Shown piece by piece: positions 6,810 through 63,638 of a stretch of 64,000 nt of DNA. The stretch comes from a phage. Location of the stretch: sequence record PX880101.1; one strand, given 5' to 3'. Numbering within the stretch: position 1 is the first letter of the stretch; the number at the start of each line of letters is the position of its first letter. The translations under genes were made by a program, and so were the position numbers. Under the pieces are notes generated by a model. It worked only from the letters and a program-made list of their open reading frames with translations. It was not told the DNA's origin and did not search any database.

Positions 6810-7178
6810 ATGGAACAAATGAACGATCAAGAGTCGGTTGCGATGAACGAGCAAGAACAACCTCAAGAATTTTTCTTAGGGTTAAGTAAAGATCAAGTGT
6901 CTCTTTTGCTAGTGCTTTCTTCTTTCATGGGAAGACTTCAGGAGCTCACACAACAACCGGAGGCTGAACAATTATTTCAGGCTCTGCGTGAAGAAGAAAA
7001 ATATCGTCGTTTGGACTATGCCTTAGGTTGGGTAGCTCAACAACGAGATATGTTGATGGCCCTCTCTGGGACCACAAGTTTTGCAATGGGCCTGTTGGCT
7101 CAAGTTCAGGACAAATTAATTCAAGCAGGGTTTGCACACACGGCAAACACTAACGAAGAACAAGGAGACAAAGAATGA
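6810..7178 (+). CDS. hypothetical protein
   Basis: GGAGA SD; coupled to the next gene by ATGA overlap. Confidence 0.55.
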   Translation: MEQMNDQESVAMNEQEQPQEFFLGLSKDQVSLLLVLSSFMGRLQELTQQPEAEQLFQALREEEKYRRLDYALGWVAQQRDMLMALSGTTSFAMGLLAQVQDKLIQAGFAHTANTNEEQGDKE

Positions 7179-8446
7179 GCGTTATTCAACAATTCGCTAA
7201 CCCGATGAATCCGCGTGAAACTGTTTTACTGGCTCACGGCATGATTAAACGCGTCAGCATCAAGCCTATCAAAGGTGCTGATCCTACAACAGGTATTAAA
7301 ACCACTGTGTGGCAAGGTAAGAAAATTGAGTCCAGCCACACCATCTCTTTACTGATTTCTGAACTGGATTCCTCTGATAACCTACTTCAAGGTGGTGAAG
7401 AAGTTTGGATCAGTATGGGCGATAAGCTGCTTAAACCGGGTCATCAAGACTCTGTCTCTGTTAAAATTGATGACAAGTGGGAAACCGTAACGCCAGGATG
7501 GATCGTAAATATCCCTTTGAAGGCAAACGAGCATAACGGTAAGACCTACTACAAAGGCTCACTGGCTAAGATGGTTAAGCTGGGTGCAGGAGAGACTCCA
7601 GCAGCGACTCAGCAGCAAAAACCGCAACAAGGTGCACAATCACAAGGCCAGAAGCAGAAACCTCAGCAGAATGCCAATCAGGACGTTTTACGCATCTATG
7701 GTGATGTGACTCAGATTGTTGGCAACGTGGTTACTGTTAATGACCACAAGATTGGCGAAGGTGCTATGGTTGTAACTGATGAGCAGCTTAAAGACCTGGT
7801 GGTAGGTGGTCGTGTTGCAGCCATTGTTGACAAAGACACCGGAAACATTATCAGTGGTTTCAAAGCCTATCCTCCTAAGGCAGAGAACGGTACTCAAGGC
7901 TCTGGTGGCAAGCGTAAATCCTCTTACGACCCTATCGGTGTGGAAACGGGGCATAGCATCAATGCGTTGCAAATCATCCTGGATCGCGGGTTTAAGGTAG
8001 ACGACCCACTAGGAGTGGCTAAAACACTACACGTAGTCACTATTGAGCTTAAGAAAGAGTATGCTCAAGCCACCAACCGAACTGAAGATGAAGTAGGTGC
8101 CAGTGTCGGTAATGCGGTGTTGAACGCTTGTCGCCGTATTGACAAGAAAACGAAAGTTGATGATTTTGCAGCGGCAATTACTGCAGAAGCAAAAGATGTC
8201 TTGACTAATCTGGCTGAGCCGTTGTACGATTGGATCAAGAACGGTGCTGGGTCAACTGACCATCAAGAACCTCAGGCTGCCAAACAGGAAGCAGCTCCAC
8301 AGCAAAACACTGTAGACGCTCCTCCTGTAAATGATGGGGAAGATGACCCGATGGATCAGAATCCAGCACAGTATGACTTCTGTGATGACATACCTTTCGC
8401 TCCGGTAGGTCTGCAATATGGTAAAAGTAGAATCTACGCATTGTAA
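7175..8446 (+). CDS. Putative ssDNA-binding protein (Q-rich linker, acidic tail with DDIPF motif)
   Basis: Low-complexity [20 protein letters not shown] linker and acidic segment DFCDDIPF resembling the E. coli SSB tail, but 15 residues follow the motif; position after helicase and polymerase. Confidence 0.4.
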
Positions 8447-9041
8447 GAGGTGCATCAAGTGCGGAGAGGTGAAAAACCTCTCCGAGTTCTACAAACATCC
8501 AAAGATGGCTGACGGTCATCTTAATAAGTGCAAAGAGTGCTGTAAGAAGGCCAGCAGAGAGGCTGACCAGTTTTCCCACGACTCTTCAGAAAAAGGTGTA
8601 ATACGCGTGCTGTACAAGGCTCAAAAGTGCAACAGCAAGCAAAGAGGTCACCCTCCTCCGACTTACACCAAAAAAGAGTTTAAGGAGTGGCTATACCTGA
8701 ACGGTTACAAAGAGTTGTATGATCAGTGGGTAGCCAGCGGATACGACAAAAGGAAAAAGCCTTCTTGTGACAGGATAGATGATTTCAAAGGGTACTCTTT
8801 TGATAATATCCGTTTAACAACCTGGGGAGAAAATAAAGACAAGCAGACGGAGGATATTCTGTTGCATAGAAGCACCAGCGGTAGACGGTGTAAAAATGTA
8901 AGGAGGCTGGACATGAATGGCAACGTTCTTAAAGAATGGGTATCCCACAATTCTTGTAGAAGAGAAACCGGAATATGTGTTGATTACTACATTCATGAAA
9001 AAATTCCAGCTCCCGATGGATACCTCTATGAATACTTTTAG
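8418..9041 (+). CDS. HNH homing endonuclease (N-terminal zinc finger plus HNH_3-like CDRID...[10 protein letters not shown] motif), free-standing
   Basis: CKRCIKCGE...HLNKCKEC zinc-binding segment and [24 protein letters not shown]; overlaps the 3' end of the SSB-like gene by 29 nt. Confidence 0.6.
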
Positions 9042-9056
9042 CACCTAACTGACATA

Positions 9057-9086
9057 GCCCTGCCCGAAAGGGTGGGGCATTTTTGT
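9057..9086 (+). terminator. Rho-independent terminator (9-bp stem, GAAA loop, T-run)
   Basis: GCCCTGCCC-GAAA-GGGTGGGGC followed by ATTTTTGT. Confidence 0.55.
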
Positions 9087-9103: not shown

Positions 9104-9520
9104 ATGACATTAGAAGATATCATTGTTAAACCTGAGAACTATGACCAATACAACCTGTCAACTCAATCTGTAGACCTTGGATGCGCCACGGTCAGTGCGT
9201 GGATGGTTAACGGAAAAGAGCTGGATAAATGCTTAGAAGCTCACATGTCTATTAACAAGTTTCTGGATGAAAATACTCACTGGCTTGAGGGTGCAGGTGT
9301 ATATGCTTCATGGTTGGAGAGTATGGGATTCGACTACCAATCTGAAGAGGGGTGGTGGAGCTATTTAGCTATCTGCCCAGAGACGCTGCAATGCTTCATG
9401 AAATATTCTGAAGATTTGGAGTACCGGGCGGTGGTTGATAGTGCTATTGCCCGTTATAGCCGTAAACCTTTTTCCCACGACATTAAAACTGTGGAAGAAT
9501 TTGTTGAAGTTTTCTGTTGA
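9104..9520 (+). CDS. hypothetical protein
   Basis: AAGGAGA SD. Confidence 0.55.
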   Translation: MTLEDIIVKPENYDQYNLSTQSVDLGCATVSAWMVNGKELDKCLEAHMSINKFLDENTHWLEGAGVYASWLESMGFDYQSEEGWWSYLAICPETLQCFMKYSEDLEYRAVVDSAIARYSRKPFSHDIKTVEEFVEVFC

Positions 9521-9616
9521 CACAAGTTGAAAGGTGTGCAATTATAACTTCATAGAACGGGAGGACGTGATGAACGAAGAAAACTGGGATGTATAACTAA
9601 CAGGAGGCCACTGCCC

Positions 9617-9814
9617 ATGATTTATCGAATCCGTGTAAGAGAAGATGCACCAGGCTGTTACTTTGACTGGCGTGGGTGGTGGTTTCTCCACCCAATGGAT
9701 GGACTCACAGATAGAATGCTGGAGGCTGCCCTTTATACAGATACCGACATAGAATATAATCTTTATCTGAAGGACGGTATAGATAACGGCCTGTTTGAAG
9801 CAATTCCTGTGTAA
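9617..9814 (+). CDS. hypothetical protein
   Basis: AGGAGG SD. Confidence 0.45.
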   Translation: MIYRIRVREDAPGCYFDWRGWWFLHPMDGLTDRMLEAALYTDTDIEYNLYLKDGIDNGLFEAIPV

Positions 9815-9882
9815 GAGACTATGATAGCCATGTTTTATGATCTTCCTGTAGCACCACCACCTGTTGAACCCGGAGAACTAAG

Positions 9883-10308
9883 ATGATCTATGAAATGCCA
9901 AAACTGATTCGCGACGATGCCCAAAACGCCCACACCTTTATCATGGGCAAGCGCATGGATATTATTTGTCATAAAGACTTCTGGGAAGGGAGTTACTTCA
10001 CAGAGTATTTTGGTAAACTGGACAATGGTCTGCTGATCCAGTTCTACACCGATGCGGAAAACAACATTCACTGGGAGTTCGAAACTGAAGATATCCATAA
10101 ACTTTTCACCTTCCTCGGTATTAAGGTTGAGGCCAAGTTTGAAGAAGGTGAGTGCGACGATTGTGGATTCTATGAGGTAACAGATTTCTACCTTCCAAGT
10201 GGTAAAAATCTCTACTACGAAAGCCACTTCGGCAACTCAAATATGCCACAGTGTTGGGATGAGTTTTTGGAAATTGCAGAAGAGGAGCTGGAATACCGTG
10301 ATTATTGA
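9883..10308 (+). CDS. hypothetical protein, translationally coupled to the macro-domain gene
   Basis: ORF; the downstream GTG start overlaps its stop. Confidence 0.5.
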   Translation: MIYEMPKLIRDDAQNAHTFIMGKRMDIICHKDFWEGSYFTEYFGKLDNGLLIQFYTDAENNIHWEFETEDIHKLFTFLGIKVEAKFEEGECDDCGFYEVTDFYLPSGKNLYYESHFGNSNMPQCWDEFLEIAEEELEYRDY

Positions 10309-10756
10309 TACTGTAGAGGGAGATCTAATCTCCCTTTTCAAGAAAGGGGCAGGACACATGATCCACGGTTGCAACTGCTTTCACACAATGGGTGCAGGCA
10401 TAGCGAAAGATATTGCCCGTGAGTTCCCTCAAGCATTGGCAGCAGACAAAGAGACTGCTTATGGTAATCTAGACAAGCTGGGTATGTTTTCTTGTTGGGA
10501 GCATTTTGCCAAGAACAAGGTTGTATATGGAATCAACCTATATACTCAGTTCTACCCAGGACCTAATGCTGAATACTTCTCAATCATGAAAGGCTTTGAG
10601 CGAGTCAACGAGGTATTCAAAGGTATGTCATTACCGTTCTACATTCCTAAAATCGGATGCGGTATTGGTGGTCTAAAGTGGGAACACGTGGAAGACGTCA
10701 TTAATCTTGCCACCACCGACATCGATGTGATCGTGGTGGAGTACAAAAAGTGTTGA
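10298..10756 (+). CDS. Macro-domain protein (ADP-ribose binding / hydrolase fold)
   Basis: VEGDLISLFKKGAGHMIHGCNCFHTMGAGIAKDI and IPKIGCGIGGLKWEHV match the macro-domain NAAN and G-rich loop pattern; GTG start assumed (GAGGAG upstream). Confidence 0.65.
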   Translation: MIIDTVEGDLISLFKKGAGHMIHGCNCFHTMGAGIAKDIAREFPQALAADKETAYGNLDKLGMFSCWEHFAKNKVVYGINLYTQFYPGPNAEYFSIMKGFERVNEVFKGMSLPFYIPKIGCGIGGLKWEHVEDVINLATTDIDVIVVEYKKC

Positions 10757-10781
10757 CGACCATCTTCTGAGGTGATATAGT
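10753..10781 (+). promoter_or_regulatory. sigma70-like promoter TTGACG-N17-TATAGT
   Basis: Hexamers read directly. Confidence 0.5.
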
Positions 10782-10810
10782 TTCCACAACAACTAAGAGA
10801 GGAGAGCACT

Positions 10811-10981
10811 GTGGAGACTAAAATCTTAATTCTTGCTGTGGTAGATACAACCGAAGGAGCTATATTCGAATCTGCAGGAGGGTATTTCTACCTACCATAC
10901 GGAAAAAGAACTTCCGAGCCAAGTAAAGATTCAATCCTCAAAGTGTTCCCGTGTGCTTTCTGGCTGGAGATTTTGGTATAA
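10811..10981 (+). CDS. hypothetical small protein (GTG start)
   Basis: GTG after AGAGGAGAG; 56 codons; not in the supplied ORF track. Confidence 0.3.
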   Translation: METKILILAVVDTTEGAIFESAGGYFYLPYGKRTSEPSKDSILKVFPCAFWLEILV

Positions 10982-61603: not shown

Positions 61604-62365
61604 TTAAAGTTCCATAAAGTTTTCTACAGTTTCAATAAATGCTTTATCAGAGAAAGCGTCAACAGCACCGTTAAACCATACAGGGATCCCGCGATCCTCA
61701 TATTGATAAAGGTCGCTACGTGAAATGCCACTTCCATCTGCACTCTGCGAATCATACTTGTTTACAATCAGCAGTTTTGTGCCTTTACAAGTAGCAGGAA
61801 ACAATTCCCAGTTAAAATTAATAACTGTGTTAGAACAACCTACCAGGATCACCATATCATTGCTTGTGAGAGATGTCAACAGGTCATACATGTCTGTATA
61901 CTTAGGAGCAACCTCACCGAAGAACACTACATTGGGCTTAACCCAGGTATACTTGCCTGTATCTACCTCCGTGTATCCGATATTTTTAATTACATCATTA
62001 CCTTCAGCATCTTCGTAGGTGATTTCAGGCAAATACCCGTGGACATGTAAAATATCTTCATGTTTTACACCAGCACGCTCCAGCAAATCATCTACATTGG
62101 TAGTAAGGTTGATCACACGACCAGACCAGCGGGAATACCACTCAGCGATCCGAAGATGTGCAAGGTTAGGATCAACACTGCCCAGAGCTACACGACGTGC
62201 ATTGTAAAAGTCATGCACCTTATAGTAGTTCTTGGCAAAGGTGTGGATGTTGCACACCTCATCGATGCTGAAATTCTCCCACATTGCAGTGCTACCAGAT
62301 CGGAAAGTGGGAATACCAGATTCAGCGCTCAAACCAGCACCGGAGATAATAATCAGTCGTCGCAT
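61604..62365 (-). CDS. Sir2-family NAD-dependent protein (sirtuin-like)
   Basis: ISGAGLSAESGIPTFR (Sir2 GAGISxxxGIPxFR motif) and TNVDDL. Confidence 0.75.
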   Translation of the reverse strand: MRRLIIISGAGLSAESGIPTFRSGSTAMWENFSIDEVCNIHTFAKNYYKVHDFYNARRVALGSVDPNLAHLRIAEWYSRWSGRVINLTTNVDDLLERAGVKHEDILHVHGYLPEITYEDAEGNDVIKNIGYTEVDTGKYTWVKPNVVFFGEVAPKYTDMYDLLTSLTSNDMVILVGCSNTVINFNWELFPATCKGTKLLIVNKYDSQSADGSGISRSDLYQYEDRGIPVWFNGAVDAFSDKAFIETVENFMEL

Positions 62366-62373
62366 AAGTGTCC

Positions 62374-62724
62374 TCAGTAGATGTTTTGTTTAATCTCTAT
62401 TCCAAACTTCTTGAATGAGTCAGCAGCAAGCATAAATTTACGAGCTGCCGATGGATTAGAAGTATGCACGAAAATAATCACGTTGTCAATAAGTGGTGGC
62501 TTTCCGAATACAAGTTTCTCCTCTAGCGCAGAGAAGCAGTCGTACCCTTCAAGCACTTCACCTAGATCATTGTCAAAATGCCACTCAGAAACGCGCCTGT
62601 AGAGCTTTCTATTATCGTTAATAAAATCCATGAACTCAGAAGAGTTCTTCAGCCAAAGAGCATCTTGGATTCCGTAATTTGACGGATCTCTCAAGTCATC
62701 TAGCCACACAATCAACTTCTTCAT
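62374..62724 (-). CDS. hypothetical protein, translationally coupled to the RNA ligase-like gene
   Basis: ATG overlaps the upstream stop (ATGA). Confidence 0.45.
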   Translation of the reverse strand: MKKLIVWLDDLRDPSNYGIQDALWLKNSSEFMDFINDNRKLYRRVSEWHFDNDLGEVLEGYDCFSALEEKLVFGKPPLIDNVIIFVHTSNPSAARKFMLAADSFKKFGIEIKQNIY

Positions 62725-63638
62725 TGCATATAGTCCTCGTTGTGAAAATAGCAATCAAGTATCTCACGGCGTTCCTGCTCCAGGAGGCAGTTCCACACAT
62801 CTTCTGTGTAATTGCTACGAATGAAGTTTACCATGCCATAAAACTCTTCGTCAATACGTTTAAAGATATCATCATCCCAAATCTTCCAAGCTTTACCCCT
62901 CATTACGGCCTTCCGTGCCAAATAGTATGGAGACTTGATCTTCAGCTGCAGGTCATAAGGGTAGTAAGGCTTACGGATCATATACCCTTCGCCCCTTGTT
63001 TCTGCAGCTAATTCTTTTGCATAGCTGAACGGGATTTCACGCACAGTGTGAGGACGTTTTGCACCAAGGTATTTGGCAATCCCATCTAAAGCTGCTTCTG
63101 GTAGCATTATTCCAGAATCATTATATCTGCAACCTATCAAATATGCGCCATGGTCTTCTTGAACAATATGCGGATCTGAAGGGTGACAAATTTCAAACAT
63201 GAATGTCATGTTTTCATTGCCCATAACCTTCTTGATAAGATCTAAATTACCACATTGCTCTTGGATGGTTTCCTTTGCAAGGTTACAATATGGAGAATCA
63301 AGAGACCCGGTTGTTGAGAACAATAGGTCACCTTTATGAGATGATACCACACCAAGGAATCCGTTCTTTTTCTCTACCGCAGTCACAAGCTTATTGTCAG
63401 GCAGGTTGGTGGAGTTTTCTCCCAAGTTAAACACTTTTGTGAAGGGCCATGCCACAACATTTCCTTCATTACCTACAACAATGCCTCGGCACTCCAGTAA
63501 ACGAGGGGACAAATGCCATAAATTGTTGTAAAATACTTTTCTAGCATATTTATAGATCTTTAACCCGAGATCTGGGTAATACCTACTGGTTACAAGACCT
63601 TTGTCAACTAGGTCGTCTGCATTAAAATACTTCATCAT
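62721..63638 (-). CDS. Putative RNA ligase (Rnl2-like nucleotidyltransferase)
   Basis: Motif I-like EKKNGFLG (compare T4 Rnl2 EKIHG), motif IV-like EGYMIRK, motif V-like LKIKSP. Confidence 0.5.
   Translation of the reverse strand: MMKYFNADDLVDKGLVTSRYYPDLGLKIYKYARKVFYNNLWHLSPRLLECRGIVVGNEGNVVAWPFTKVFNLGENSTNLPDNKLVTAVEKKNGFLGVVSSHKGDLLFSTTGSLDSPYCNLAKETIQEQCGNLDLIKKVMGNENMTFMFEICHPSDPHIVQEDHGAYLIGCRYNDSGIMLPEAALDGIAKYLGAKRPHTVREIPFSYAKELAAETRGEGYMIRKPYYPYDLQLKIKSPYYLARKAVMRGKAWKIWDDDIFKRIDEEFYGMVNFIRSNYTEDVWNCLLEQERREILDCYFHNEDYMQ

Follow-up and report, generated by a model that had tools for sequence, protein, structure and literature searches.

The 64,000-nucleotide (nt) stretch of phage DNA analysed here (sequence record PX880101.1, hereafter the window) carries at positions 9883-10756 two overlapping plus-strand genes, the first encoding a 141-residue protein (p141) and the second a stand-alone macrodomain. 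By analogy with the phage T4 protein Tk.4, the most likely role of the macrodomain is to remove from phage DNA the ADP-ribose added by the host toxin DarT2. The reading favoured below, to which we give a probability of roughly 0.58, is that the two neighbouring genes are non-essential accessory genes of a Vequintavirus, with the macrodomain erasing DarT2 marks and p141 being a separate protein. Over this region, more than 100 Vequintavirus (rV5/FV3-like) Escherichia coli phage genomes are 95-97% identical to the window, the best match being MaxBurger (97% here), that is, phage Bas54 of the BASEL collection, in which the two genes are bas54_0091 and bas54_0092. The main features of the locus are the following.

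9883..10308, plus strand: p141, ATG at 9883, TGA at 10306-10308, 141 amino acids (aa), phrog_8157, bas54_0091 orthologue
10298..10756, plus strand: macrodomain gene, stand-alone, 152 aa, GTG start, TARG1/DarG/SCO6735 class, Tk.4/AdfM family, bas54_0092 orthologue
10283..10287, plus strand: Shine-Dalgarno AGGAG of the macrodomain gene, located within p141, 10 nt upstream of the GTG
10298..10308, plus strand: 11-nt gene overlap, macrodomain GTG against the last p141 codons and TGA stop
10373-10375, 10547-10549 and 10655-10663, plus strand: key codons of the macrodomain gene, for N26, Q84 and G120-C121-G122, respectively

An earlier note on this DNA, made from the letters alone, had described two open reading frames (ORFs) at these positions, the second bearing macrodomain hallmarks and starting at a GTG that overlaps the stop of the first. 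The sequence confirms this description, with the quoted motifs HGCNCFHTMGAGIAKDI and IGCGIGG corresponding to macrodomain residues 23-39 (10364-10414) and 119-125 (10652-10672), numbered from GTG 10298. The locus is less novel than that note assumed, as database entries for more than 100 phage genomes contain these genes, and in several of them the second one already goes by the name of “macro domain protein”, “Poa1p-like” or “phosphatase”. The profile search proposed in the note agreed with its family assignment. Pfam PF01661 was matched above its cut-off (26.1 bits versus 22; residues 22-134 on profile positions 1-117 of 118), phrog_335 with an expect value (E) of 3e-60, and the PADLOC DarG model with E 3e-13 over its macro part only (positions 4-143 of 329). 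An AlphaFold2 model of the protein (predicted local distance difference test, pLDDT, of 95) found as best Protein Data Bank (PDB) matches in Foldseek TARG1, DarG and Poa1p, with BT1257 and SCO6735 further down (template modelling, TM, score of about 0.75), all ranking above viral and MacroD-type domains. A profile built from 51 relatives recovered the same proteins from the PDB (DarG, BT1257, SCO6735, TARG1 and Poa1p, E 7e-15 to 4e-12). All top PDB sequence and profile matches are members of the TARG1/ALC1-like class, and the phage protein is a genuine macrodomain of this class, which includes TARG1, DarG, SCO6735, BT1257 and Poa1p.

Within this class the phage protein is expected to do the work of DarG's enzymatic half, yet it is not itself a DarG, because it is devoid of the DarT-binding domain and its score lies far under the equivalog cut-off of the NCBIfam DarG model NF048014 (47.7 bits versus 250, with only positions 3-143 of 338 matched). 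It shares with the DarG macrodomains of Mycobacterium tuberculosis (5M3I) and Thermus aquaticus (5M31/5M3E) the fold and the class (profile E 7e-15; TM 0.76), whereas the C-terminal DarT-binding domain and the adjacent darT that belong to DarG are both absent here: no darT-like gene was found near the macrodomain gene in the ORF list or in the Bas54 annotation of the region.

The active site places the protein more precisely. Residues N26, Q84, G120 and G122 are invariant among the 51 relatives, and three of them (N26, G120 and G122) correspond to N27, G126 and G128 of SCO6735, a DNA-damage-induced macrodomain of Streptomyces coelicolor (PDB 5E3B). SCO6735 cleaves thymidine-linked ADP-ribose on DNA by a mechanism proposed to be water-mediated; its activity is abolished by the Q85A and N27S substitutions and reduced when N27, G126 or G128 is mutated (PMC9411070). 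Judging from the alignments, the Tk.4 lineage, including the gene studied here, belongs to a glutamine subtype together with SCO6735 and BT1257 and not to the lysine subtype, because the invariant Q84 falls at the position of DarG Lys80, TARG1 Lys84 and SCO6735 Gln85. The likeness to SCO6735 thus extends to class, to the Gln replacing the catalytic Lys, to the conserved Asn and to the GxG loop. However, the bacterial protein has a mobile loop that is five residues longer and contains Lys89 and Lys94, absent in the phage protein, and pairwise sequence similarity between the two is low (E 6e-6). Human TARG1 (OARD1) and yeast Poa1p are among the top structural matches (TM 0.75-0.81 and 0.64-0.72, respectively) and share the ADP-ribose-binding architecture, but the Lys84/Asp125 dyad of TARG1 is replaced in the phage protein by Gln84 and Gly124, and Poa1p dephosphorylates a free metabolite.

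The evidence for a role against DarT2 comes from T4 Tk.4, the closest tested relative. The two proteins are 39% identical (67% positives, E 3e-43) over residues 1-150 versus 1-152 and neither carries an extra domain. They are stand-alone macrodomains of about 152-155 aa with matching N-termini, an NxYTQF motif and a Gln in the catalytic place. Neither gene is essential on E. coli K-12, and each overlaps the stop of the gene upstream. The phages differ in family (Straboviridae for T4, Vequintavirinae here), as do the upstream genes, which are vs in T4 and the unrelated p141 here. In a transposon screen, tk.4 was the only significant DarTG2-specific gene of T4, being conditionally essential in the DarTG2 host, and a clean knockout sensitised T4 to DarTG2, which led in 2025 to the name adfM (bioRxiv 10.1101/2025.11.20.689424). 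The same name was independently given to PhiKZ gp104, which is likewise an orphan phage macrodomain and strips T-linked ADP-ribose off DNA in vitro (PMC13309987). Removal of thymidine-ADP-ribose, the activity of DarG and PhiKZ AdfM, is the function predicted for the macrodomain studied here, although both enzymes use a catalytic Lys (K80 and K78, respectively) where the protein studied here has Gln. The DarTG2 phenotype belongs to T4, and the role in Vequintavirus is predicted from homology, the protein being by its sequence a further predicted member of the now-characterised AdfM/Tk.4 kind. Such relatives are widespread: tblastn located them in 2,836 phage records, the annotated T4-like matches lying beside vs or being labelled tk.4.

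Transposon insertion data (HIDEN-SEQ) are available for both phages. In Bas54, insertions were recovered at all 31 TA sites of bas54_0092 and at 21 of the 23 in bas54_0091, both genes being non-essential on E. coli K-12, and T4 tk.4 (45 of 46 sites hit) is likewise non-essential. In the comparison of Bas54 on K-12 with a clinical isolate, the macrodomain gene was not depleted (log2 fold change +0.42, adjusted p 1) and neither was bas54_0091; this result can be assigned with certainty to a single K-12 comparison (CFE303 or CFE311; Extended Data Table 8), which is probably that of K-12 versus CFE311 because bas54_0063 and bas54_0140 are depleted there.

Taken together, these data allow a mechanism to be proposed. 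The two genes would be co-transcribed from a sigma-70-like early promoter and coupled in translation through the 11-nt start/stop overlap. Once DarTG2 is triggered, DarT2 would ADP-ribosylate thymidines in single-stranded phage DNA and thereby block replication. The phage macrodomain would then bind the ADP-ribose in a site of SCO6735 type, in which Asn26 may position Gln84 and the Gly-rich loops may hold the diphosphate while catalysis proceeds through a water molecule. Hydrolysis of the thymidine-ADP-ribose bond would restore replicable DNA. In this scheme p141 is expected to be a separate acidic accessory protein, whose link to the macrodomain would be positional and genus-specific and not that of a required partner. 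The gene structure, the overlap, the identity and class of the macrodomain, its active-site residues, its homology to T4 Tk.4 and the lack of conserved synteny are shown by the sequence comparisons, whereas DarT2-modified DNA as the substrate, early expression, translational coupling and the independence of p141 are inferred. The suggestion in the earlier note that the macrodomain could reverse DNA ADP-ribosylation by a host toxin thus agrees with what is known of T4 Tk.4/AdfM, which acts against DarTG2, and of the Gln-type SCO6735, and probably holds here by analogy.

Several observations weigh against this proposal. The biochemistry of T4 AdfM is only inferred in the preprint describing it (bioRxiv 10.1101/2025.11.20.689424), identity to Tk.4 is only 39%, so that substrate specificity could differ, and the published insertion data for Bas54 cover E. 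coli K-12 and two clinical isolates, the DarTG2 challenge having been made with T4. Residues H23 and T30 align with Poa1p His23 and Ser30 and are conserved or similar, leaving room for an ADP-ribose-1''-phosphate phosphatase activity, and enzymes of the TARG1 class can also act on ADP-ribose linked to protein and to RNA phosphate ends. As for the independence of p141, its acidity (net charge -20) would suit a nucleic-acid mimic cooperating with the macrodomain, and in phages nomine and HMD-6 a single mosaic patch spans the 3' third of p141 and the macrodomain gene, meaning that the two travel together within the genus.

The promiscuity of the TARG1 class gives rise to the first alternative, in which the macrodomain would reverse ADP-ribosylation of protein or RNA caused by other host toxins and defences or by a phage transferase, DarT2-modified DNA not being its target. 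TARG1 and SCO6735 both de-modify PARP1, TARG1 acts on phosphate ends of RNA and DNA, and defences based on RNA-targeting transferases, such as CmdT, do exist. Nevertheless, T4 Tk.4 has been linked specifically to DarTG2, SCO6735 was reported to be inactive on 2'-OH RNA ADP-ribose and on 5'-phosphate ADP-ribose, and the annotation of the Bas54 region that the window covers contains no ADP-ribosyltransferase, which makes this alternative unlikely.

A second alternative, which we regard as quite unlikely, is that the macrodomain acts on small metabolites, either as an ADP-ribose-1''-phosphate phosphatase or as an O-acetyl-ADP-ribose deacetylase, in the service of Sir2 and RNA-repair genes. It draws on the presence of Poa1p, an ADP-ribose-1''-phosphate phosphatase, among the solved relatives (profile E 4e-12, and Foldseek) and on the alignment of H23 and T30 with Poa1p His23 and Ser30, the C-terminal region of Poa1p around Phe152 aligning poorly. 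Database names such as “phosphatase” and “Poa1p-like” and the historical annotation of Tk.4 as “A1pp phosphatase” point the same way, but these names derive from domain-level annotation and not from assays. Moreover, the tk.4 phenotype in T4 is specific to DarTG2, and the invariant Asn/Gln pair is the one needed by SCO6735 to cleave thymidine-ADP-ribose on DNA. The remaining argument concerns Sir2, which the earlier note had correctly placed elsewhere in the window and had offered as a possible source of the macrodomain substrate. The gene (61604-62365, minus strand; Pfam SIR2, E 7e-28) adjoins a gene encoding a cREC_REC “cyclic-phosphate processing receiver” domain (62374-62754, minus strand), and in Bas54 the Sir2 and cREC_REC genes lie next to RNA ligase, polynucleotide kinase (PNK) and phosphoesterase genes. 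By gene content this group resembles a cluster for RNA repair that includes an unusual sirtuin. The link between Sir2 and the macrodomain is not supported, given that the two genes are 51 kb apart, on opposite strands and in different transcription blocks, Sir2 standing in that RNA-repair cluster. T4, to our knowledge, has no sirtuin, though it carries Tk.4.

The frame of the macrodomain gene is open from 10199, with a GTG there and an alternative in-frame ATG at 10259 that was chosen in the PMBT16 annotation. GTG 10298 (10298-10300) is nevertheless the preferred start, because from this codon the N-terminus aligns residue by residue with that of T4 Tk.4 (MIIDTVEGD / MIVKYIKGD), because the ATG at 10259 has become ACT in nomine and HMD-6, both of which retain the GTG and the AGGAG, and because the PHROG profile match starts near the GTG; for the same three reasons the longer ORFs starting at 10199 or 10259 were rejected. 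The GTG start and the overlap arrangement were annotated independently in MaxBurger, Mangalyan, nomine, HMD-6 and Gotham, and the AGGAG at 10283-10287, conserved in five relatives, is annotated as a ribosome binding site (RBS) in the Mangalyan record. For p141, a GGAG at 9872-9875 precedes the ATG. Both genes are real, because synonymous codon differences between strains exceed non-synonymous ones in each (against nomine, 41 versus 24 in one gene and 17 versus 7 in the other), and the antisense ORF at 9835-10227 was discarded as a gene, having no family match and facing a substitution pattern that favours the plus-strand frames.

The macrodomain GTG is 8 nt upstream of the p141 stop, giving 11 nt common to both genes, and this overlap suggests translational coupling. 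An RNA structure sequestering the RBS was considered as further evidence of coupling and dropped, the fold of the gene junction being non-significant (z -1.6). A hairpin that is nearly perfect (GGGAGAU-CUA-AUCUCCC, 10 pairs when extended) is found at 10316-10338, 18 nt 3' of the macrodomain GTG; it is mostly retained in relatives and might impede independent initiation, with the fold of the whole junction being non-significant as said.

From the coupling the earlier note had derived a two-gene unit. As a functional entity this unit would be a split mimic of DarG, in which p141 binds DarT2 or mimics single-stranded DNA, or else targets or regulates the macrodomain. Such a possibility, to which we give only a small chance, has several points in its favour. 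The 11-nt overlap and the embedded RBS imply roughly matched co-expression, and the whole p141 family is strongly acidic (-13 to -20). DarG has two ways of neutralising DarT, one of which relies on an acidic domain that mimics DNA, and AdfB, a phage protein, acts by binding DarT. In addition, the 3' end of p141 was exchanged together with the macrodomain gene in nomine and HMD-6, and homologues of p141 of the Krischvirus type also stand directly upstream of genes related to DNA-base modification (dam and QueC-like).

The comparison of gene neighbourhoods speaks otherwise. The adjacency of p141 and the macrodomain gene was seen only in Vequintavirus genomes, which are near-identical to one another, so that it does not amount to a conserved operon; it is absent in Krischvirus, in the phage contigs L010, L013/L014 and L016/L017, in T4 and in JK32. 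In Krischvirus the p141 homologue lies directly upstream of dam. In the metagenomic T4-like contigs L013:514-2060 and L014:150-1819 it is followed by a QueC-like gene and then by dam, overlapping the QueC-like PP-loop gene (phrog_1550, E 5e-40) by 17 nt, and in contigs L010 and L016 it adjoins unrelated small genes. No macrodomain was found within 3 kb of the p141 homologue in any of these four non-Vequintavirus contexts. Conversely, the Tk.4-type macrodomain genes of T4 (adfM) and JK32 follow vs, which is unrelated to p141, and macrodomains of this type occur in about 2,800 phage records versus about 180 for p141 relatives. Nor does p141 resemble the DarG models, AdfA/gp61.2 or any PDB sequence or fold, and small neighbouring proteins are often acidic. 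The overlap itself is normal packing for this genome and no mark of a functional pair, because 39 of the 131 adjacent same-strand pairs (30%) overlap in the Bas54 region equivalent to the window, 18 of them by at least 8 nt. With an adjacency limited to one genus, common overlaps and different partners elsewhere, the functional two-gene unit is not supported. Overall, the earlier note is partly supported, being right in that the macrodomain probably reverses toxin-made ADP-ribosylation of DNA and wrong as to a dedicated two-gene unit and a link to Sir2.

The joint exchange in nomine and HMD-6 can be understood from the layout alone. Identity to these phages falls from 97-100% to 68-88% over approximately 10150-10740, a patch that takes in the 3' third of p141 and the macrodomain gene in full. 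In nomine, identity is back at 99-100% at 10750, and in HMD-6 it rises gradually, reaching 89-92% by 10800-10950. This profile marks the patch as a mosaic produced by recombination, one of whose breakpoints lies within p141, and exchange of both genes at once is to be expected because the RBS and the start of one gene lie inside the other. The different identities of the two proteins in nomine (95% for p141 versus 83% for the macrodomain), once taken as proof of independent exchange, were withdrawn from the argument, as the diverged patch begins inside p141. A toxin-antidote module, with p141 as a toxic enzyme and the macrodomain as its antidote, is barely credible: gene order and overlap are its sole support, whereas in Bas54 the macrodomain gene can be interrupted at each of its 31 TA sites without loss of fitness, the insertion tolerance of bas54_0091 and bas54_0092 arguing against such a pair, p141 has no transferase motif, family match or fold match, and a natural variant exists without either intact gene. 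The latter, protein P0004 from a 135,506-nt phage contig, consists of p141 residues 1-55 fused to macrodomain residues 84-152. The 9-nt stretch CAGTTCTAC, encoding Q-F-Y, is present in both genes, at 10039-10047 in p141 and at 10547-10555 in the macrodomain gene, and P0004 is the product of a natural 508-nt deletion between the two copies by microhomology, destroying both genes.

Returning to the favoured reading, our best guess for p141 is an independent accessory or counter-defence protein. Its family is tiny and confined to phages (9-11 clusters in collections of 5.8 and 1.8 billion proteins, with relatives in about 180 phage records). Across members the net charge ranges from -13 to -20, p141 itself being at -20, and many small neighbouring proteins are acidic as well. 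A conserved C-terminal core (G89 C91 D92 C94 G95 ... H115 F116 G117 N120 P122 W125) was recognised, and an AlphaFold2 model built from eight sequences (pLDDT 90.6; predicted TM score 0.82) shows a beta-rich N-terminal half, a helix, beta-hairpins that bear the invariant turn C91-D-D-C94-G, followed by H115-F-G and a helix at the C-terminus. The CxxC...H pattern of this core is invariant in the family. No match was obtained in Pfam, NCBIfam or PADLOC, nor among PDB sequences at E up to 10 or among known folds. Possible relationships were also examined and rejected one after another: with Vs, whose gene is upstream of tk.4 in T4 (BLASTP E above 30); with AdfA/gp61.2 (hhalign probability 0.2%); and with the DarG C-terminal domain or any defence or anti-defence protein (no Pfam, NCBIfam, PADLOC or PDB sequence match). 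The match (E 1e-13) to a eukaryotic protein of 3,189 aa with VWD repeats proved spurious, its score being the sum of seven chance matches of only 9-12 bits each. That p141 is a small acidic counter-defence protein of a new kind seems very unlikely to us, be it as the toxin-binding or single-stranded-DNA-mimicking half of a split DarG mimic with the macrodomain or, more broadly, as an accessory factor whose gene phages place just before those of counter-defence enzymes that modify DNA bases (AdfM here, Dam or QueC-like in T4-like phages). p141 is only a lead, a highly conserved yet dispensable acidic protein whose predicted structure matches no known fold.

Should the prediction for the macrodomain be true, the AdfM type of counter-defence, in which orphan antitoxin-like macrodomains erase DarT2 ADP-ribose marks on DNA, would extend from T-even and PhiKZ-like phages to the rV5-like phages, which find use in phage therapy and in biocontrol. 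The Tk.4 lineage, widespread with about 2,800 phage records, would then be using a Gln-type site as in SCO6735 and not the catalytic Lys of DarG, and this would help to predict which phages resist DarTG2 hosts.

The immediate surroundings of the two genes include the following predicted or annotated features.

9057-9078: terminator-like hairpin, predicted
9517..9545, plus strand: predicted promoter-like site, TTGACA, 17-nt spacer, TG-AATTAT (consensus scan, 10 of 12 matches)
9617..9814, plus strand: gene of unassigned function, 65 aa, from the ORF list (phrog_9903, E 2e-45; annotated in relatives; bas54_0090 orthologue)
10753..10781, plus strand: predicted promoter-like site directly after the macrodomain gene, TTGACG, 17-nt spacer, TG-TATAGT (consensus scan)

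Judging from consensus matches only, the two promoter-like sites and the hairpin at 9057-9078 suggest a unit of three genes, in which p141 and the macrodomain gene follow the 65-aa gene, the latter probably being first in the transcript. The site at 9517-9545 may drive this unit, and the site at 10753-10781 probably starts the next transcription unit. In the Gotham record, promoters are predicted at the places equivalent to both sites.

A few additional observations were made in the course of the analysis. A protein of 142 aa (P0011) combines an N-terminus like that of the EndoVII/homing-endonuclease protein encoded at 8418-9041 with the C-terminal core of the p141 family (10150-10308), which points to a chimera formed by deletion or recombination in some relative; nomine and HMD-6 have no endonuclease gene at the equivalent position. 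A 24-nt imperfect direct repeat (79% identity) links 10184-10207 in p141 (FYLPSGK) with 10884-10907 (FYLPYGK) in the gene for a 56-aa protein at 10811-10981, and is probably due to chance. Further upstream, the 423-aa protein encoded at 7175-8446 (phrog_4477; bas54_0087 orthologue) has a Q/P-rich low-complexity middle and no Pfam match, and bas54_0087 was called essential in Bas54, with 8 of 57 TA sites hit. Finally, a stretch of approximately 2.5 kb lying between the plus- and minus-strand blocks of MaxBurger (L007:24190-26701, in MaxBurger coordinates) carries no annotated gene, and the HIDEN-SEQ paper reported no tolerated transposon insertions in that part of Bas54, suggesting an important function.

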